Origin: a virus
DNA length: 10,168 bases
Virus genome (UHGV): UHGV-1558260
Strand: one strand, 5' to 3'
Below the pieces are notes generated by a model. The model did not search any database, had not been told where the DNA came from, and saw only the letters and a list, made by a program, of their open reading frames with translations. Position 1 is the first letter of the stretch; each line of letters begins with the position of its first letter. Position numbers and translations under genes: made by a program. Below are positions 1 through 10,168 of this stretch, one piece after another.

Positions 1-657
1 TATACCATCCAGCGCGATTCGCAGTGCCTGAATTGTGGTAATGCTATCGTTTGGGGCTATTCCATATCGCTCGAATACAGCGATATGACCGCGCATAATC
101 TCAGGCGTAAGCTCTTTGTAAGCATAAGCAAGAGACTCTGATGCATTATCCGGCACTACTGGCGATGGCTGTTTAGCTTCTAAATCAGCAATTCTGTCAA
201 CCACGGCATCGACAGCATCTGAAAAGCCGAACCAGTTGCTCCACTCAGGCCTATCCCCGGTTGCTGCAAAATACATATCAGCTAAAGCAGACTCAGCATG
301 GTCACGCTCGTTGATGAGTTGCTCTTCGCTTTTCTCCAGTTCAGCAATACGCTTACTTCCATCCGCGATTACTCCCTCGTAATACTCGCGTTGCTCGTTG
401 AGTTTTGATTTTGCTTCCTCAAGCTCAACACGCAGCTTCCCTACCGTTAGCGCAATATCCTCGTTCTCCTGGTCACGGCGTTTGATGTATTGCTGGTTTC
501 TTTCCCGTTCATCCAGAAGCGCCAGCACAATGTGTGGCGTTATTAAGGACTCAAATTCGGCAACAGCTTGCTCACCTCGCTTGTAATTCTTAATCCCACC
601 TAAATCTTTCGCGTTCTGTGCCGCCTCACGCAGTGCCTGGTAATTAATTTCGCTCAT
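1..657 (-). CDS. Ea22-like early protein, N-terminal 219 codons (C-terminus lies beyond window start)
   Basis: ATG at 657-655 preceded by AGGAGG; frame open to position 1 (translated by hand, no stops). Begins [21 protein letters not shown]...[49 protein letters not shown]; coiled-coil N-terminus resembles Ead/Ea22-like proteins of lambdoid phages as I recall them. Absent from the ORF track because it has no stop in the window. Confidence 0.6.
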
Positions 658-837
658 TGGTTGCCTCCTTTGCGCAACATCGCATTCAGATATTTGTTGT
701 CATTAACAGAACCGAAACTCTTTCTCTTAAGCAATTCCTCTCTCGATGGCATTGGCTTTACGCGTTGGCGAATAATCATTTCTGCAGGAAGAATGCCGGG
801 GTTGTATGCAAGTCATCTCATGGTAAATTCCTCTTTG

Positions 838-1164
838 TTAATTTATTCGTATGCCTGCTCTTTCTTCATCGAGTTTTTTTAGCTTGTATCGCATAGCTCT
901 TACTGAATAAATTGAGCGGCAGGTTGCAATTGCTATTTCTTCTGCGGAGAACTTACCGAAAAGTGATACTTCGGCTCTTGTCCATCGTCTTCCACGAAGT
1001 CGGCTAACAATGTCAGCGCCAATCCTTGTTGCTTTCGCCATTACTGCTTTTTCAGTCCTTTCCAGTTTTTCAGCGATAACTTCAACTGGCATTGTCGCCG
1101 CTACTTCGCGCAAGAAATCGACTTCCCATTTCTCCCATGGAGTCTTTTTCATAGGCGATACCAT
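838..1164 (-). CDS. hypothetical phage protein (108 aa)
   Basis: ORF-track ORF; its start overlaps the stop of the upstream gene (ATG at 1164-1162, TAA at 1166-1164). No clear SD; an alternative ATG lies at 1152. No recognisable family. Confidence 0.5.
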   Translation of the reverse strand: MVSPMKKTPWEKWEVDFLREVAATMPVEVIAEKLERTEKAVMAKATRIGADIVSRLRGRRWTRAEVSLFGKFSAEEIAIATCRSIYSVRAMRYKLKKLDEERAGIRIN

Positions 1165-1646
1165 TATTTGATAAGAAGTGAAGGTTTCCCAACCTTGAGT
1201 TGAGCGCCTGGGATATTTATTCCTGCTTTTAGTTGGTGCTTGATTGCCAACTTGTCGGCTTTAATTGTCGTTTCAAACTCAACGTATTCAGGAGGAAGGG
1301 CGCTTGAGTCGATGATTTCTACGGTTTCTGACGGTTTGCGGATTGTTACCTGGTGAATACCTGCTCGAATCTTTTTCTTGCCAACCATTTCAAGCGATGA
1401 CGCTATATATGATTTGATGCTGTCAATCTTATTTTGAATTACTGCTGCTCGTTCATTCAGTGACTTCGCCTCGTCCTTGAGGCGTTCAGCATAACCAGAT
1501 TCATTTTTAATAATGGCAAGAAGTTGCTCTATTTTATCGGTAAATTCTCCTTCCATGCCTTCTATTGTGTCAGCAATCATCTCTGGCTCTAAATCTGAAT
1601 CCATCAATTTTGCGTATTCATTGGCAATTTCATACAGTTTGCTCAC
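1164..1646 (-). CDS. Gp157-like phage protein (RecT-associated)
   Basis: ORF-track ORF 1164..1652 begins at a TTG with no spacer; GTG at 1646-1644 has GGAGG 6 nt upstream and is the likelier start. Coiled-coil-rich 160 aa protein; sits directly beside RecT as Gp157-family genes commonly do. Family assignment is from memory. Confidence 0.55.
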   Translation of the reverse strand: MSKLYEIANEYAKLMDSDLEPEMIADTIEGMEGEFTDKIEQLLAIIKNESGYAERLKDEAKSLNERAAVIQNKIDSIKSYIASSLEMVGKKKIRAGIHQVTIRKPSETVEIIDSSALPPEYVEFETTIKADKLAIKHQLKAGINIPGAQLKVGKPSLLIK

Positions 1647-2541
1647 TGGCAACCTCCAGTTTCGCTTTGCATTCTGCGTAAATGGCTTGTACGTTTTGCT
1701 GCAATTTCATTCCAGATGTCAGGCGATATGCTTCTGCAAAATATCTCTTCAAATCATCCATGTTTTCAGCCTGAGCCATTTCATCACAAAGAAGTTGTGC
1801 TTTATCCGTTATTTCCTGCTGGCGTTTCCGTTCATCTTCGCGGATATCTTCCTCTGATTTGTGCGGCATAACTGGTTCAGTCCATACACCTTCTTCTTCG
1901 TTTAGTACGTGAATAGCACTATCAAGACGTGATGCCTTAGGCCAATACTTGCTTGCACGCTTTACGACCGTCTTTCGCGCCATCTCATTCCAGTGATTTA
2001 CCCATGGTCCTTTATCGCTGAATGCCGCCTTGCTTGTTTTCCTTACAGCCTCAATTTCAGCCAGACTCATCTCTTCCGTTAGATAATCACCTGCTGGCGT
2101 CTTAACTGTGCAGTAAACACCAACGATATCGCCACGATCACCGAAGGCGTTGTATTTATGGGTTGGTGCTTTATCAAGTCCGTTTGACTCATAAGTATCG
2201 TTAGCATGAACAAGCTTTGCCTGACCCCATGAGATAACACCAGACTCCATTGCAATATGTAGCAATCCCATATAGCTGATATCAAGGCAAACCATGCCGT
2301 CGCGCGGAACCAGATAAGCCAGTTTGCTAGCCGGGTTTAAGGTGATACCGATCGCCGCAACATTGATGATGGCGTTCTGTGCGCTGGTTGGATTTGCCAG
2401 TGCCGTTTTAGCCAGGTAATCATTTTTCTGGAAATACTGAATTGCAAACTGGCTTTCCTTAGCCCATGTCACCGTCTGTTCAGTCAATGCTCCGCAGAAT
2501 AACTGCTCTTGCTGTTTAACGAATTCAACGATATTGCTCAT
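1630..2541 (-). CDS. recT: RecT-family single-strand annealing recombinase
   Basis: 303 aa; motif GPWVNHWNEMARKTVVKRASKYWP matches the conserved RecT motif (Rac RecT GPWVTHWEEMAKKTAIRRLFKYLP); GGAGAAG SD upstream of the ATG; ATGA overlap with the upstream gene. Confidence 0.85.
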   Translation of the reverse strand: MSNIVEFVKQQEQLFCGALTEQTVTWAKESQFAIQYFQKNDYLAKTALANPTSAQNAIINVAAIGITLNPASKLAYLVPRDGMVCLDISYMGLLHIAMESGVISWGQAKLVHANDTYESNGLDKAPTHKYNAFGDRGDIVGVYCTVKTPAGDYLTEEMSLAEIEAVRKTSKAAFSDKGPWVNHWNEMARKTVVKRASKYWPKASRLDSAIHVLNEEEGVWTEPVMPHKSEEDIREDERKRQQEITDKAQLLCDEMAQAENMDDLKRYFAEAYRLTSGMKLQQNVQAIYAECKAKLEVASEQTV

Positions 2542-2849
2542 GCTGCTTCTCCAAAAATGTGTCTGCGTTTGAATATTGCGAAGGCATATTCAGCCTTAAC
2601 TCTTTCGGTCATTGCATCCCAGAACCATTCAGCGGCTTTTTCCTGATAGTTACAGTCATCATCTTCCAGCCAGTCGATAGCGTCCTTAGTGTGTTCATCT
2701 GGTTTATATGAGCGAAGCATTTCGCTTATTGGGTCGCAACGTTTGCAGAGGCGATCAACTTCACTGTTGATTCGTTCGTAATCTTCATCAGTAAAACTTG
2801 CGATTATTTGCGATATTTCACGCTTATCATTCAGAGTCAGAATCATCAT
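2538..2849 (-). CDS. hypothetical protein (103 aa), in the position lambda gam occupies
   Basis: ORF-track ORF; tandem ATGATG start with AGGAGA SD; ATGA-coupled to recT. Acidic protein; does not resemble lambda Gam from memory. Confidence 0.55.
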   Translation of the reverse strand: MMILTLNDKREISQIIASFTDEDYERINSEVDRLCKRCDPISEMLRSYKPDEHTKDAIDWLEDDDCNYQEKAAEWFWDAMTERVKAEYAFAIFKRRHIFGEAA

Positions 2850-2934
2850 CTTTCTCCTGTTCTTTGTGCTGATTGAGCATTTTGTTCATCTGACGAATGA
2901 ATTCTTCGTCTGACCAGTTATCTGTAAAACTCAT
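2827..2934 (-). CDS. small acidic ORF (35 aa), speculative
   Basis: ATG at 2934-2932 overlaps the Kil-like stop (ATGA); encodes MSFTDNWSDEEFIRQMNKMLNQHKEQEKDDDSDSE. Too short for the ORF track; overlaps the start of the 103-aa gene. Confidence 0.25.
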   Translation of the reverse strand: MSFTDNWSDEEFIRQMNKMLNQHKEQEKDDDSDSE

Positions 2935-3083
2935 TTCCTGCGATACCACGGAAGGTTGATAGCTGATTTCATCGCTTTATTTGCTTCAAGCCACATTTTT
3001 GAATCACCAATAAATCTGGCTATTACTGCTTTGTTTTGTGCTGCACGAAGCATCTGGTGATTGATGGCTATTTCATTGCGCAT
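2931..3083 (-). CDS. kil: Kil-like host cell-division inhibitor (50 aa)
   Basis: Hand-translated MRNEIAINHQMLRAAQNKAVIARFIGDSKMWLEANKAMKSAINLPWYRRK; the FIGD.KM segment and position directly after cIII match lambda Kil as I recall it; GAGG SD 6 nt upstream. Confidence 0.55.
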   Translation of the reverse strand: MRNEIAINHQMLRAAQNKAVIARFIGDSKMWLEANKAMKSAINLPWYRRK

Positions 3084-3199
3084 AATAAGACCTCAACTCT
3101 TTTCCATCCGTCACGTAATTTACGGGTGATTCGTTCAAGTAAAGATTCATTTAGTTGGAAGGCACCCATGCGAGCGCCTCCCGCGATTGCGTAAATCAT
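3068..3199 (-). CDS. cIII: cIII-like protein (FtsH inhibitor, 43 aa)
   Basis: Hand-translated MIYAIAGGARMGAFQLNESLLERITRKLRDGWKRVEVLLCAMK; the core ESLLERITRKLRDGWKR matches lambda CIII; AAGGAA SD upstream. Confidence 0.75.
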   Translation of the reverse strand: MIYAIAGGARMGAFQLNESLLERITRKLRDGWKRVEVLLCAMK

Positions 3200-3223
3200 G
3201 GGTGGTTCCTTATGTTGGTTTTA

Positions 3224-4192
3224 TTAGTAGGTTATTTTTGTTGCGAATACTTCGCCTTTTACGATGGCTGTTATGATATTTTTAGCAACATCTTCTGATG
3301 CGCCAACCTTGATAAGGTCAGCAAGTATTTTGTTATTTACTTCTTTCCGGTGAGCTTTATCCTTTGCTCTACGCTCTTCTTCGTCCTTGATTCTTTTTTC
3401 TTCTGCTATTCTGGCTTGCTCTTTTGCTTCAGCCTCGCGACGGATTCGTTCAGCCTCCTCCTGTGCTTTTCTGCGTTCTGCTTCAATTGCTGCCTGCTTT
3501 TCTCTTTCAGCTCGTTCTGCTTCCTCTTTTGCTTCGCGCTGTGCTCGTTGCTCGGCTTCAATGCGCTCACGCTCTGCACGCTCCGCTGCGGCCTTAGCTT
3601 CTGCTTCTCGCCTTGCTGCTGCTTCAATTTCGGCTTTTGCCTTTGCTTCGGCTTCTGCTCTGGCTTTCTCTTCAGCTTCTCTTTTTAAGCGTTCTTCATG
3701 CTCTCGCTTTTCCTGCTCCGCTTTGAGTCTTGCCTCTTCTCTTTGGCGGTCAAATTCGCGATCCATCAAAATCGCTATTTCATGGTCAGACTCAATTTGC
3801 TTTGCGAGAGCTTCAGCTGCTGCCTTAGCTTCTTCTTCGGCTTTAATCCGTGCCTGTTCCTCCTCATAATCAGTAAGAGGCTGGCGAGCCTTGGCTTTCA
3901 GTTCATCAAGGCGATCGCGCACTGTCTTGCGGTTGGCATCAATTAGCTTTGGAATTTCCTTCAGTTCAGCAACAAGGTCTTTGCCAAGACCATCGAGATA
4001 TGTTTTCGTCTGCGCAACTTTATACGCCAGAGAAGCGATCTCCTTTCTGCCCTTTGCCGTTGTGATATCAGGCACAAAGGACATAACTTCACGTTCAACC
4101 TTTTGGAGAATTTCTTCAATCTGGTCTGCAGACTGAAATACAGTCATTGCATTTGCTTTTTCAATAACAACTAAGTCTGTTACTTCACTCAT
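3224..4192 (-). CDS. highly charged E/R/K/A-rich coiled-coil protein (322 aa; TolA-domain-II-like central helix)
   Basis: ORF-track ORF 3224..4246 trimmed to the ATG at 4192-4190, which has GGAGG 4 nt upstream. About 170 central residues are EAEAKAKAEIEAAARREAEAKAAAERAERERIEAEQRAQREAKEEAERAEREKQ-type repeats between globular N- and C-terminal segments. Confidence 0.7.
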   Translation of the reverse strand: MSEVTDLVVIEKANAMTVFQSADQIEEILQKVEREVMSFVPDITTAKGRKEIASLAYKVAQTKTYLDGLGKDLVAELKEIPKLIDANRKTVRDRLDELKAKARQPLTDYEEEQARIKAEEEAKAAAEALAKQIESDHEIAILMDREFDRQREEARLKAEQEKREHEERLKREAEEKARAEAEAKAKAEIEAAARREAEAKAAAERAERERIEAEQRAQREAKEEAERAEREKQAAIEAERRKAQEEAERIRREAEAKEQARIAEEKRIKDEEERRAKDKAHRKEVNNKILADLIKVGASEDVAKNIITAIVKGEVFATKITY

Positions 4193-4204
4193 ATATCCTC
4201 CATC

Positions 4205-4233
4205 AAAAAAATTGCCCTCACACTGGAGGGCAA
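4205..4233 (-). terminator. intrinsic terminator (8-bp GC-rich stem, 7-U tail) 13 bp upstream of the coiled-coil gene
   Basis: Plus strand has A7 at 4205-4211 then ttgccctc-acactg-gagggcaa (4212-4233); on the minus strand this reads hairpin followed by TTTTTTT. Confidence 0.6.
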
Positions 4234-4324
4234 AGAAGATTTCCAATAATCAGAACAAGTCGGCTCCTGTTTAGTTACGAGCGACATTGCTCACATAGCA
4301 GACTCGTAAATCTGCTATAGGCGC

Positions 4325-4483
4325 TTATTCGCATCGCATGACAACATCAAATTTTTCGAGATTACTTTGTCGCAACAATCCTTCTTCTACTCGGTCAGCT
4401 TTTCTATAATTATCAAATTCGAAATGTTTAATTACTTCTTTTGTTTCTCGCTCTATAACTTCAACGATGTATCTCTTATTCAT
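4325..4483 (-). CDS. small hypothetical protein (52 aa)
   Basis: ATG at 4483-4481 overlaps the TAA of the 89-aa gene (TAATG); encodes MNKRYIVEVIERETKEVIKHFEFDNYRKADRVEEGLLRQSNLEKFDVVMRCE. Below the ORF-track length cutoff. Confidence 0.4.
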   Translation of the reverse strand: MNKRYIVEVIERETKEVIKHFEFDNYRKADRVEEGLLRQSNLEKFDVVMRCE

Positions 4484-4752
4484 TACTCATCACCTAGGGC
4501 TTTTTTGATAGCTTCGCGAGCCTTATTAACAGCTCCATACCATTCTGGATATGTTGTCGTTGTTCTATTTTCGGCTTGCTTAAGTAATAACTGAAGTGCT
4601 TCAAGTAAATCCGGTGCAGCCATAGCCAACCTTCCATTTGCTACGGCCTCTTCTGTTTCTTTACCGGATAGGGCCATTCCCGGGTGTGAAAATAAAATTA
4701 AGCCTGCAAATTGGCTTCTCGCCAATTTTTTCCTAGTACCTTTAAATTCCAT
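4483..4752 (-). CDS. hypothetical protein (89 aa)
   Basis: ORF-track ORF; AGAGG SD about 7 nt upstream of the ATG; lies immediately downstream of the 4773-4798 hairpin. Confidence 0.55.
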   Translation of the reverse strand: MEFKGTRKKLARSQFAGLILFSHPGMALSGKETEEAVANGRLAMAAPDLLEALQLLLKQAENRTTTTYPEWYGAVNKAREAIKKALGDE

Positions 4753-4772
4753 GTTAGCCTCTGTTGTTTATG

Positions 4773-4798
4773 CCAAAAGAAGGCCGACTATGCGGCCT
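4773..4798 (-). terminator. tL1-like intrinsic terminator
   Basis: aggccg-actatg-cggcct hairpin at 4781-4798; on the minus strand it is followed by TCTTTTGG (plus 4773-4780). Confidence 0.45.
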
Positions 4799-4839
4799 GT
4801 GATGTTAGATTTACTTTCATTTTTGAACGGCAGCTACAA

Positions 4840-5103
4840 TTATGATGGAATGTACAAAACCACTTTCCAGTTCATAGAAGTGGATGATGGCATAAAATAA
4901 TCCCACGACTCGTTAGCTACTAACTCTTTATTAACTGTGGTGGCAGCAATTTCGGCACCACCTTTATTATTAAAAATGTCGTTCGAATACTGACATTTTC
5001 CATCTGCATGCACATATAAAATATCATATGTCTCTGTATCGTAATCACCACTTATGTCTCTGATAACAATTCCTGGCTTCAATGATTTAATTTTCTTGTC
5101 CAT
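4840..5103 (-). CDS. hypothetical protein (87 aa), translationally coupled to N
   Basis: ATG at 5103-5101 lies 8 nt after the N stop with a GAGGTGA SD overlapping that stop; coding sequence is visibly AT-rich. No recognisable family. Confidence 0.55.
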   Translation of the reverse strand: MDKKIKSLKPGIVIRDISGDYDTETYDILYVHADGKCQYSNDIFNNKGGAEIAATTVNKELVANESWDYFMPSSTSMNWKVVLYIPS

Positions 5104-5111
5104 ATATCACC

Positions 5112-5438
5112 TCAAATAAGTGGTTTGCAGCCTAATTTCATTTTCTGGCGACCAACACAAGTCAACCCCATTTCACTACGTGGCTTGCTGTACCATGTGC
5201 GCTGATTCTTGCGCTCAATACGTTGCAGGTTGCTTTCAATCTGTTCGTGGTATTCAGCCAGCACTGTAAGGTCTATCGGATTCAGTGCGCTTTCTACTCG
5301 TGATTTCGGTTTGCGATTCAGCGAGAGAATAGGGCGGTTAACTGGTTTTGCGCTTACCCCAACCAACAGGGGATTTGCTGCTTTCCATTGAGCCTGTTTC
5401 TCTGCGCGACGTTCGCGGCGGCGTGTTTGTGCATCCAT
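5112..5438 (-). CDS. N: antitermination protein N (lambda-like)
   Basis: From the ATG at 5438-5436 the protein reads MDAQTRRRERRAEKQAQWKAANPLLVGVSAKPVNRPILSLNRKPKSRVESALNPIDLTVLAEYH..., matching lambda N; the C-terminal ~25 aa differ. The ORF-track entry 5112..5516 is an upstream extension into the leader. Confidence 0.9.
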   Translation of the reverse strand: MDAQTRRRERRAEKQAQWKAANPLLVGVSAKPVNRPILSLNRKPKSRVESALNPIDLTVLAEYHEQIESNLQRIERKNQRTWYSKPRSEMGLTCVGRQKMKLGCKPLI

Positions 5439-5596
5439 CTGGATTCTCCTGTCAGTTAGCTTTGGTTGTGTGTGGGAGTCGTAGTCCTGAACGAAAACAC
5501 CCCGCGATTGGCACATTGGCAGCTAATCCGGATTCGCACTTCCGGCCAATGCTTCGTTTCGTATCACACACACCAAAGCCTTCTGCTTTGAATGCT

Positions 5597-5627
5597 ACCC
5601 TTCTTCAGGGCTTAATTTTTAAGAGCG
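5597..5627 (-). promoter_or_regulatory. nutL: nutL (boxA CGCTCTTAAAAATTAA and boxB GCCCTGAAGAAGGGT hairpin)
   Basis: Reverse complement of 5597-5627 gives the lambda nutL boxA and boxB elements; boxB closes with a G-U pair where I recall lambda having G-C. Confidence 0.85.
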
Positions 5628-5666
5628 TCACCTTCATGGTGGTCAGTGCGTCCTGCTGATGTGCTT

Positions 5667-5729
5667 AGTATCACCGCCAGTGGTATTTATGTCAACACCG
5701 CCAGAGATAATTTATCACCGCAGATGGTT
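5667..5729 (-). promoter_or_regulatory. pL promoter with operators OL1, OL2, OL3
   Basis: TATCACCGCCAGTGGTA (5669-5685), CAACACCGCCAGAGATA (5693-5709), TATCACCGCAGATGGTT (5713-5729); minus-strand -35 TTGACA and -10 GATACT with 17-bp spacing. Confidence 0.9.
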
Positions 5730-5879
5730 ATCTGTATGTTTTTTATATAGATTTATTTTTTGCAGGGTTGTGTGGATTGGGAAGGTGATCGAGAGATCTG
5801 AATTGCGATGTTTAGTGAGTTGTATCTATTAATTTTGAAATAAATACAATTGGTTATGCGTTTTTTGGGGGCGTTAGGC

Positions 5880-5905
5880 AAAGAAAACCCGGCGCAGATG
5901 CCGGG
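5880..5905 (-). terminator. intrinsic terminator downstream of the 301-aa gene
   Basis: cccggc-gcagat-gccggg hairpin at 5888-5905; minus strand then reads TTTTCTTT (plus 5880-5887). Sits about 13 bp past the stop at 5918. Confidence 0.6.
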
Positions 5906-5917
5906 TTGTGGTGGAGA

Positions 5918-6823
5918 TCAATGCTTATTTGGGAGTGCTGGTTTTTTTATCGACTCTAATAGCTCGGAGGCGTTACTAATCTTTTTGTTCCCAAGGTAAT
6001 TTGGCAGTTTTTCCATTGCGTAATTATCGTGTAGCCATTTTCTGAACACGCCAAGTGCCTCAATAGGATAAATCCAAGCTGTTATATGCTTATTTGCAGC
6101 TGACTGCCTGTAATTTTCGGGGAATAAATGTGGGTACTGCACCCTTTCCCCGAATTTCTCAGATAGCCCATTAGCTGTCCAATACTTTCCCCAGTGAATT
6201 CCAACACTTCCATCCAAAGATGTGGTGTCATCCATTGGGAATCCTCCTCCGATCAGGTTCATGGCAATGTCAGCTATCTCTCTGAATACTGCAAAATGAG
6301 TTGTCGGTATCTGATCGTTTAGCTTAATCCTTGCTCTATAGTTCTCGAATGAGATATCTATTGAAGCATTTGGGTTGTAATTTGACTTTTCATAAATCAT
6401 TCGCTTAAGCGTGTACTCAGCCAAGCGAACAAAATTACCTATTGCGACTGACCTATCAAAATTGGTGGCATCTAGAGCGTAGTAACGGAGGATAGCCATG
6501 CAAACATAGTCAGGATAAGCATGAGTTTCCACGTTTGAGCTATTTAAAACGCGAGTGTATAGCTTTTCGACGTTATGAAACCCTTTCTCAGCTAAATACG
6601 CAGCTACTTTTTGACCTCTGGGTTTGTTTTTCTCTGTGTTCCAGTTTGATGTGAACACCCTCAGTGGCGTGTCATCAATGCCGCATAACTTTGCGAGACC
6701 GTAGAGAGTTAGGTAAGGAGTTCCATCATTGAGAACGCCCATAGGAATATCATCAGAAACAACCTCTACTACAGGGAAAAGCTGCATTTGATGCAGGGAT
6801 TCGCTATTGCTGTTAATCGACAT
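5918..6823 (-). CDS. hypothetical protein (301 aa) in the cI-to-pL interval (rexAB position); candidate exclusion/defence gene
   Basis: ORF-track ORF; AAGGAA upstream of the ATG; 86-bp spacer after the cI stop; AT-rich relative to cI. Does not resemble RexA or RexB as I recall them; no family recognised by eye. Confidence 0.7.
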   Translation of the reverse strand: MSINSNSESLHQMQLFPVVEVVSDDIPMGVLNDGTPYLTLYGLAKLCGIDDTPLRVFTSNWNTEKNKPRGQKVAAYLAEKGFHNVEKLYTRVLNSSNVETHAYPDYVCMAILRYYALDATNFDRSVAIGNFVRLAEYTLKRMIYEKSNYNPNASIDISFENYRARIKLNDQIPTTHFAVFREIADIAMNLIGGGFPMDDTTSLDGSVGIHWGKYWTANGLSEKFGERVQYPHLFPENYRQSAANKHITAWIYPIEALGVFRKWLHDNYAMEKLPNYLGNKKISNASELLESIKKPALPNKH

Positions 6824-6909
6824 ATCTTAATGATTTCCTTATTTTTATTGTAGGGATCTTCTTTTTTATTTCCTACATCTAGATGCGTATAAAGTCTCTT
6901 GCTGCGGAC

Positions 6910-7625
<716 letters not shown>

Positions 7626-7636
7626 ACGTTAAATCT

Positions 7637-7700
7637 ATCACCGCAAGGGATAAATATCTAACACCGTGCGTGTTGACTATTTTACCTCTAGCGGTGATAA
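7637..7700. promoter_or_regulatory. OR3, OR2, OR1 operators with divergent pRM and pR promoters
   Basis: TATCACCGCAAGGGATA (7637-7653), TAACACCGTGCGTGTTG (7659-7675), TACCTCTAGCGGTGATA (7683-7699); pR -35 TTGACT and -10 GATAAT; cro SD TAAGGAGG follows. Confidence 0.9.
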
Positions 7701-7716
7701 TGGTTGCATGTACTAA

Positions 7717-7926
<210 letters not shown>

Positions 7927-7933
7927 ATAACCC

Positions 7934-7965
7934 CGCTCTTACACATTCCAGCCCTGAAAAAGGGC
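7934..7965 (+). promoter_or_regulatory. nutR: nutR (boxA CGCTCTTA, boxB GCCCTGAAAAAGGGC)
   Basis: boxA at 7934-7941 and the boxB hairpin at 7951-7965, followed by the lambda-like leader that runs up to the cII start. Confidence 0.85.
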
Positions 7966-8044
7966 ATCAAATTAAACCACACCTATGGTGTATGCATTTA
8001 TTTGCATACATTCAATCAATTGTTATCTAAGGAAATACTTACAT

Positions 8045-8323
8045 ATGCAACTTACAAGTACTCGCAAGAAAGCGAATGCAATTACAAGCAACATCCTGAA
8101 TCGAATTGCTGTACGTGGCCAGCGAAAGGTTGCCGACGCGTTAGGGATTAATGAATCGCAAATTTCGCGATGGAAAGACAGCTTCATCCCAAAAATGGGA
8201 ATGCTTCTGGCTGTTCTTGAATGGGGTGTTGAAGACGAGGAGTTGGCGGAACTGGCTAAGAAAGTAGCCAGAATGCTGACAAAAGAAAAAGCCCCGAAGA
8301 ACGGCGAATTCTTCGAGGCCTGA
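8045..8323 (+). CDS. cII: CII-like transcriptional activator (divergent from lambda CII)
   Basis: ATG at 8045 with AAGGAA SD (track ORF 7985..8323 is an upstream extension). 92 aa MQLTSTRKKANAITSNILNRIAVRGQRKVADALGINESQISRWKDSFIPKMGMLLAVLEWGVEDEEL...; the QISRWK and LLAVLEWGV motifs are shared with lambda CII. Confidence 0.8.
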   Translation: MQLTSTRKKANAITSNILNRIAVRGQRKVADALGINESQISRWKDSFIPKMGMLLAVLEWGVEDEELAELAKKVARMLTKEKAPKNGEFFEA

Positions 8324-8357
8324 TGTAGAAAGACTGGATCAATCCACAGGAGTAATT

Positions 8358-8519
8358 ATGACAAAACGTCGTAAGAAATACCAGGAAAAAGAAGAGATTC
8401 GACACCCTGATTCACCTGAGGGATTAGTGGTAGCCGCAGCAAATAACAGGGCGTTCGCAGAGCGCCTTGTTGGTGTTTACAGACTAGCCAAAGCAGGAGT
8501 GAAACATGGGCGTCGTTAA
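8358..8519 (+). CDS. small basic ORF (53 aa) between cII and the O-like gene, speculative
   Basis: ATG at 8358 with AGGAG 6 nt upstream; encodes [53 protein letters not shown]; overlaps the O-like start by 14 nt. Below the ORF-track cutoff. Confidence 0.35.
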   Translation: MTKRRKKYQEKEEIRHPDSPEGLVVAAANNRAFAERLVGVYRLAKAGVKHGRR

Positions 8520-9327
8520 GTTAGCTGATTACAGGCCTCAACTGGAGGTCGTGGAGCATCGCGTGGCAGATACCGAAGATGGTTTCATGCGCGTTGCTAA
8601 CGAGATTACCGACAGTCTGCTGATGGCTGATTTAACCGTCCGGCAGATGAAGGTGATGCTCGCTATCATGCGCAAGACATACGGATTCAATAAGCCGATG
8701 GATCGACTCACAAACACGCAGATAGCAGCCATGACAGGTATTCATCACACTCATGTTTGCGCTGCCAAGCGCCAGCTTATTGAGCGTAAATTCCTCATTG
8801 CTGATGGCGTGAAAATCGGAGTGAACAAGGTGGTTTCGCAGTGGATTAGCCAGGACAGCTTAACATTAGCTAAAACAGCTAATAAAACATTAGCCGAGTC
8901 GGCTAATGGGTATAAGCCAAGTCAGCTAAACACAAAAGACAATATACAAAAGACAATAAATACAAATACCCCCTTACCCCCTAACGGGGGCGGCGATGGG
9001 CAGGTTAAACCTGAACGTCGCAAGGCAGAACGAATCGACTACGAATCCTTCCTGAACGCCTACAACACCGAAGTCGGTGACAGACTTCCACACGCTGTTG
9101 CGGTCAACGAAAAACGCAAACGCCGCCTGAAGAAAATCATCCCGCAACTGAAAACGCCAAACGTGGACGGTTTCAGAGCGTATGTCAGGGCGTTTGTGCA
9201 TCAGGCCAAGCCGTTTTACTTCGGAGATAACGACACGGGCTGGACGGCTGATTTTGATTACCTGCTGAGGGAAGATTCGTTAACGGGAGTTCGGGAAGGG
9301 AAGTTTGCAGACAGGGGGATTGCATGA
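8506..9327 (+). CDS. replication initiator, lambda-O-like N-terminal domain with a non-lambda C-terminal domain
   Basis: 273 aa; [38 protein letters not shown] aligns with lambda O DLTKRQFKVLLAILRKTYGWNKPMDRITDSQL; AGGAG SD; the gene contains the iteron array; ATGA-coupled to the helicase gene. Confidence 0.85.
8846..8990. other. putative replication origin: four about 19-bp iterons (ATTAGC-N7-GCTAAT type), A-rich tract, then C5/G5 inverted repeat
   Basis: attagccaggacagcttaa (8846-8864), attagctaaaacagctaat (8865-8883), attagccgagtcggctaat (8889-8907), ataagccaagtcagctaaa (8912-8930); A-rich 8931-8968; ccccc...ggggg at 8969-8990. Same layout as lambda ori inside O. Confidence 0.55.
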
Positions 9328-10022
9328 GACAGGATATCGAAGCGAGCGTTATCGGTGGCCTGCTGATTGGTGGATTAACACCAACTGCCAGTGACGTTCT
9401 GGCAACGCTTGAGCCGGAAGCGTTTTCAATTCCGCTCTACCGGAAAGCCTTCGAGGTTATCCGGAAGCAGGCGCGAAACAGAAACCTAATCGACGCGCTG
9501 ATGGTTGCCGAGGCGTGCGGAGAGGAGCATTTCACGTCAATCCTGATGACCAGCAAAAACTGCCCGAGTGCCGCAAACCTGAAGGGATATGCCGGAATGG
9601 TCGCGGATAACTATCACCGCCGTCTGGTGCTGGAAATCATGGATGAAATGCGTGAACCAATTCAGAGCGGAACCATCGATACATCGAGTCAGGCGATGGA
9701 CGAGCTTGTAAAGCGTCTTTCAGCCATCAGAAAGCCCCGTGACGAGGTTAAACCTGTACGGTTAGGGGAAATCATCACTGACTACACTGACACGCTTGAC
9801 AGGCGTCTGAGGAACGGAGAAGAGTCCGATACCCTGAAGACCGGAATCGAAGAACTTGACGCTATCACCGGAGGGATGAACGCGGAAGACCTGGTAATTA
9901 TCGCCGCTCGTCCTGGTATGGGGAAAACCGAACTGGCGCTGAAGATTGCCGAAGGTGTTGCAAGCCGCGTTATTCCTGGTTCTGACGTCCGGAGCGGAGT
10001 ATTGATTTTCTCATGGAAATGA
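9324..10022 (+). CDS. DnaB-family replicative helicase (N-terminal domain plus Walker A); frame closes prematurely
   Basis: 232-aa ORF ending ...[24 protein letters not shown]...GVLIFSWK then stop. Walker A GMGKT present. DnaB-like peptides continue downstream in other frames (EMSA; [12 protein letters not shown]; [21 protein letters not shown] to the window end). Confidence 0.7.
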
Positions 10023-10168
10023 GCGCATGCAGATTGCAGAGCGAAGCATTGCCAACGCCGGGGAGGATGTCAGTTAGCGTGCTGCGAAAATCCTGCATCG
10101 ATGGATGACGAAGGCTGGGCGCGTGTTGCTAACGGCATGAGTCAGCTTGCAGATTTGGATGTGTGGGT

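Follow-up and report, generated by a model that had tools for sequence, protein, structure and literature searches.

Probable homopolymer miscalls behind a broken DnaB-type helicase frame at the end of a lambdoid phage contig

The helicase gene at the contig end

The window, i.e. the whole stretch of 10,168 nucleotides that was analyzed, corresponds to one SPAdes-style metagenome contig, ERZ504722 NODE_2104 (10168 b), as shown by an exact search of the gene index with the 232-aa product described below. The full record name, ena:ERZ504722:NODE_2104_length_10168_cov_3.275570, gives a k-mer coverage of ~3.3x. The contig comes without host flank, which leaves the label 'prophage' given to this DNA in an earlier note unsupported. 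At its 3' end, the contig carries the first part of a replicative helicase gene with the following features:

9324..10168, + strand: DnaB-type replicative helicase gene, 5' part (845 b), lambdoid phage type (HK97 gp55 / HK544 gp47), running off the contig end
9324..10022, + strand: truncated 232-aa ORF ending in ...GVLIFSWK, with a TGA stop at 10020-10022
9906..9929, + strand: intact Walker A motif (P-loop) ARPGMGKT, from the translation and the alignment to AARPSMGKT of E. coli DnaB

The gene starts in a 4-b ATGA overlap with the upstream O-like replication gene (8506-9327), and the contig ends after 281 of its 458 codons; intact relatives encode 458-459 aa. In the Pfam analysis of the window ORF, the DnaB N-terminal domain is present (PF00772, residues 3-95, 51.3 bits vs. 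a cut-off of 23), and the match to DnaB_C (PF03796) is confined to profile positions 2-56 of 255. The Walker A motif agrees with the consensus GxxGxGK(T/S). As written, however, the window does not encode a complete RecA-like C-terminal domain with Walker A, FS(L/M)EM, Walker B and arginine finger in one frame. The ORF ends 30 residues past the lysine-threonine of Walker A, within the FS(L/M)EM motif.

The earlier note had reported that the ORF closes at 10022 with ...GVLIFSWK where an FSLEM-type motif is expected, and that helicase-like sequence continues in other frames before the original frame is resumed. Translation confirms the former, as E. coli DnaB reads VLIFSLEM at this place. The latter is borne out by a three-frame reading: downstream of the stop, frame +2 encodes MEMSA, frame +1 encodes 11 residues, and the original frame then encodes 25 residues up to the last base.

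The 845 b share 97-98% nucleotide identity with the helicase genes of HK97-like lambdoid phages (HK97 gp55 'P', HK544 gp47; prophage proteins WP_001248394.1 and WP_001248388.1). In these phages, an O-like initiator and a phage-owned DnaB homolog replace lambda P. HK97, HK544 and many E. coli prophages share the gene order cI, cro, cII, small ORF, O-like initiator and helicase, the last joined by the ATGA overlap. The helicase frame is continuous in E. coli ZH063 and in the IMG/VR phage contig IMGVR_UViG_3300045988_041964 (39.7 kb; here L068), both of which were translated, as well as in E. coli B27 and phage HK544, where complete helicase genes are annotated. The window copy differs from the HK97/HK544 type by four private single-base homopolymer indels and by the cut at the contig end.

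Alignment of an intact relative to E. coli DnaB (PDB 6bbm and others) runs end to end, over residues 5-428 (230 bits, E = 4e-67), and includes Walker A and VLIFS(L/M)EM; in relation to E. coli DnaB, the intact phage helicase is a phage-encoded paralog. The intact helicase of L068 (L068:5244-6617) covers positions 2-247 of 255 of DnaB_C with 265 bits and passes the thresholds of both Pfam domains. Its scores do not reach the curated cut-offs of the NCBIfam equivalogs, with 339.4 vs. 385.25 for TIGR00665 and 316 vs. 498.65 for TIGR03600 (phage_DnaB). This widespread prophage helicase clade is a member of the DnaB family outside the TIGR00665 and TIGR03600 models.

Four single-base indels and their absence from relatives

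To locate the indels, the window was aligned at the nucleotide level to E. coli ZH063, E. coli B27 and phage HK544, and then to L068. At least three indels within about 90 bp had been implied by the earlier reading; the alignments set the number at exactly four, each of a single base and all within 78 bp. Every one alters the length of a homopolymer run:

10013, + strand: indel 1, A vs. AA in relatives (CTCAATGG); -1 shift that creates the TGA at 10020-10022
10028, + strand: indel 2, T vs. TT in relatives (GCATTGCAG); second -1 shift
10060-10063, + strand: indel 3, GGGG vs. GGG in relatives; +1 shift
10087-10090, + strand: indel 4, AAAA vs. AAA in relatives; +1 shift

The four shifts sum to zero, so that translation is back in the original frame beyond 10090. 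All four lie 78-156 b from the 3' end of the contig. No indels are found in the remaining 689 b of the helicase gene on the contig, nor in the O, cII, cro, BstA_C-domain and N genes.

The distribution of the indels was followed in public sequence collections. Among 5426 complete E. coli genomes, 698 contain a 'replicative DNA helicase' gene that the 845-b query matches with up to 97.9% identity and equal query and subject length; in 668 E. coli genomes, the match extends over 80% of the query or more. Further relatives were taken from an IMG/VR scan with the intact 24-mer, which hit at least 120 phage contigs in viral_contigs and served as positive control for the deletion searches. Indels 1 and 4 are absent from all 105 relatives that span the full 845 b, and indels 2 and 3 are each absent from 104 of them. 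The single exception for indel 2 is a relative whose alignment shows an inserted C two bases upstream. The combination of indels seen in the window occurs in none of the 105 aligned relatives. Exact searches with a 23-mer carrying the first deletion gave no match in genome_contigs, metagenome_contigs or viral_contigs, and a 34-mer carrying the first two deletions gave none in viral_contigs. For the last 184 b, the best match among the 5426 complete E. coli genomes reaches 96.2%, the difference being four gaps and three substitutions. With this ceiling, the version in the window lacks a match among the complete E. coli genomes, although the sharing of a single indel is not thereby excluded.

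The substitutions behave differently from the indels. Each substitution in the window is common to at least one of the 105 relatives, and almost all are frequent natural polymorphisms. Four rare alleles, found in 1-2 of the 105 relatives, are located at 9896 (A), 9993 (A), 10072 (A) and 10163 (G). L068 carries the same four alleles, which are therefore real lineage markers and not errors. The allele at 9993 replaces the usual Arg by Ser in VR(R/S)GVLIF.

Comparison with an intact relative and the cI gene

L068 is like the window in its module of N, BstA_C-domain gene, cI, cro, cII, O and helicase 5' part, which is free of substitutions between the two. Over window positions 4631-10168 (5538 b), the only differences are six single-base changes of homopolymer length, four of them in the helicase gene and two in cI; this alignment places them at 7448, 7548, 10012, 10027, 10060 and 10087. 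In the helicase region, the comparison yields 0 mismatches and 4 gaps. L068 lacks all six changes and encodes an intact helicase of 458 aa and an intact cI of 237 aa. When the four bases are repaired in the window, the helicase frame becomes continuous to the contig end, and 9324-10168 is then base-identical to L068:5244-6088. Since the repaired stretch is identical to an intact gene, the resemblance of the shifted frames to a helicase is not due to chance. The earlier note had named a corrected sequence with one continuous helicase frame as evidence against a real break, and L068 supplies it.

The cI gene of the window is broken in a similar manner:

6910..7625, - strand: lambda-type cI repressor gene, frame-broken by two homopolymer insertions
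7448-7451: cI insertion, TTTT vs. TTT in relatives (an A-run on the coding strand)
7548-7555: cI insertion, T8 vs. T7 in relatives (an A-run on the coding strand)

Deletion of both extra T's restores a 237-aa cI protein identical to that of L068. The cI disruption is very probably an artifact of the same class as the helicase indels, located at what would be a second thin spot. The broken cI had been cited earlier as corroboration of decay; with two extra T's in T-runs as its cause, it loses this role.

To the left of the shared module, the two contigs part. Window 4193-4630 aligns to L068:114-550 with 13 substitutions and several indels, and no match is left of 4193. E. coli B27 matches window 653-4292 at 97.7% identity without gaps. 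Such a junction is typical of module exchange in lambdoid phages. The divergence left of 4631 and the missing match left of 4193 indicate that L068 and the window represent independent mosaic phages sharing one module, not the same molecule assembled twice.

Between the N/PL region and cI, an intact 301-aa ORF (5918-6823, - strand) with a Pfam match to BstA_C (PF26567) is encoded identically in the window and L068. The same position is occupied by rexA and an ExbB-like gene in B27 and by two other ORFs in HK544. The ORF has the appearance of an accessory module exchanged at the rexAB position, possibly with an anti-phage role.

Sequence error and its alternatives

The break in the helicase gene is very probably a base-calling or assembly error and not gene decay. 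As originally flagged, the feature has no biological reality. Low coverage, clustering of the changes, indels restricted to homopolymers without any substitutions, and the intact gene of L068 together make error the best explanation. Of the two readings offered earlier, a degenerating prophage or a locally poor sequence, only the latter is supported; the former is at odds with the 3.3x contig, the exclusively homopolymeric indels and the substitution-free but intact L068.

The clustering is pronounced, with the four helicase events packed together at the contig end and the two cI events within 100 b of each other. If six events were placed uniformly, at least four would fall within 76 b with a probability of 1.3e-4, and for such a cluster to lie also in the last 160 b the probability is ~3e-6. 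A random 1-b indel in this sequence would alter the length of a homopolymer in about 43-48% of cases, which for six of six gives ~0.008. Homopolymer miscalls are known to cause false frameshifts in 454, Ion Torrent and nanopore data and in low-quality read tails. The window resembles this known artifact in its six 1-b changes of run length, their clustering, one cluster at the contig end, a coverage of 3.3x and 0 substitutions.

On this explanation, the four frame-shifting differences would be errors of homopolymer length in the consensus sequence of a metagenome contig with very low coverage. Assemblers usually have the fewest supporting reads near a contig end, and the 3' end here is probably backed by one or two read tails of low quality. 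Read depth would be lowest at the two indel clusters, and the sequencing chemistry or the read quality may have been prone to homopolymer miscalls. Four errors per 160 b (2.5%) would be expected of a single homopolymer-prone raw read or of a poor read tail.

Some points stand against an artifact. The main one concerns the sequencing platform. Most SPAdes assemblies are built from Illumina reads, which seldom contain indel errors, and a total of six within 10 kb would be unusually many unless the reads were of very poor quality or came from Ion Torrent or 454 instruments. A literature search for papers mentioning ERZ504722, in which the platform was sought, returned none. Another concerns the opposite contig end, where an ORF at 1-657 (- strand) is open without visible frameshift, the gene running off the left end; proximity to a contig end is therefore insufficient on its own. 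Window 1-700 gave only partial, ungapped matches of 88-97% identity to the fetched loci, with no close relative among them.

The foremost alternative is that the indels are real and that a defective lambdoid phage or prophage is losing its helicase and cI, for example in a mismatch-repair-deficient host with frequent slippage. We consider this very unlikely. The changes do fall in two key genes, replication slippage likewise yields homopolymer indels, and a single consensus sequence is compatible with a true variant in the sampled population. Spontaneous mutation in E. coli and other enterobacteria, however, produces about ten base substitutions per small indel, and natural decay as well as mutator backgrounds both yield more substitutions than indels. 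Decay should leave substitutions first, and six indels with 0 substitutions relative to L068 over 5538 b are not such a pattern. The location is also hard to reconcile with real mutations, as four of the indels adjoin the contig end within 78 b on a contig of 3.3x coverage. With 1-3 b in five of six cases, the affected runs are short and do not represent slippage hot spots. Three other 7-base runs in 4631-10168 are unaltered. The first deletion is absent from the three public collections searched, and the 105 relatives offer hardly any precedent for the individual indels, with indels 1 and 4 in none of them and indels 2 and 3 each missing from 104. A pseudogene would be recognized by inactivating changes that are reproducible in the lineage and by substitutions at the neutral rate; neither was found here.

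In its strictest form, with all six indels real, this alternative describes a lambdoid prophage with very recent loss of repressor and helicase purely by slippage, which we regard as highly improbable. If it were true, a strongly mismatch-repair-deficient host or the targeted inactivation of a resident prophage would be indicated.

A functional break, be it a natural domain boundary or split helicase, or programmed frameshifting or transcriptional slippage that gives a full-length helicase, has a practically negligible probability in spite of the zero net length change and the return of the original frame after 10090: the stop falls at DnaB_C position 56 of 255, within FS(L/M)EM and not between domains, ZH063, L068, B27 and HK544 encode the helicase in one continuous frame, none of the 105 relatives shares the indel combination, four successive shifts would be needed, and no site is a known slippery heptamer. 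L068, which is free of substitutions and differs only by being in frame, effectively refutes this reading already. The natural domain boundary in homologs, raised in the earlier note, was dismissed in view of a stop that interrupts a conserved motif within the RecA-like domain. Programmed frameshifting was rejected because the examined relatives are in frame; a shifted arrangement conserved among homologs, as programmed frameshifting would leave, was not observed. A strain-mixture chimera was also rejected, as mixed natural alleles would add substitutions and not private homopolymer indels.

With sequence error as the preferred explanation, the consequences are mainly practical. Where frameshifts consist solely of altered homopolymer lengths, error should be assumed before pseudogenization is considered, especially if they cluster near the end of a contig with ~3x coverage. 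In the gene index, the truncated 232-aa product is encoded on one contig only, as a singleton, so that a false 'protein' has already been absorbed by gene callers and protein databases. The biological significance of the break itself is small, and its supposed corroboration by cI is removed. The source phage would carry a normal, continuous DnaB-type helicase gene of the HK97/HK544 type after its O-like initiator gene. This gene is the ordinary DnaB-type helicase of HK97-like lambdoid phages and nothing new.
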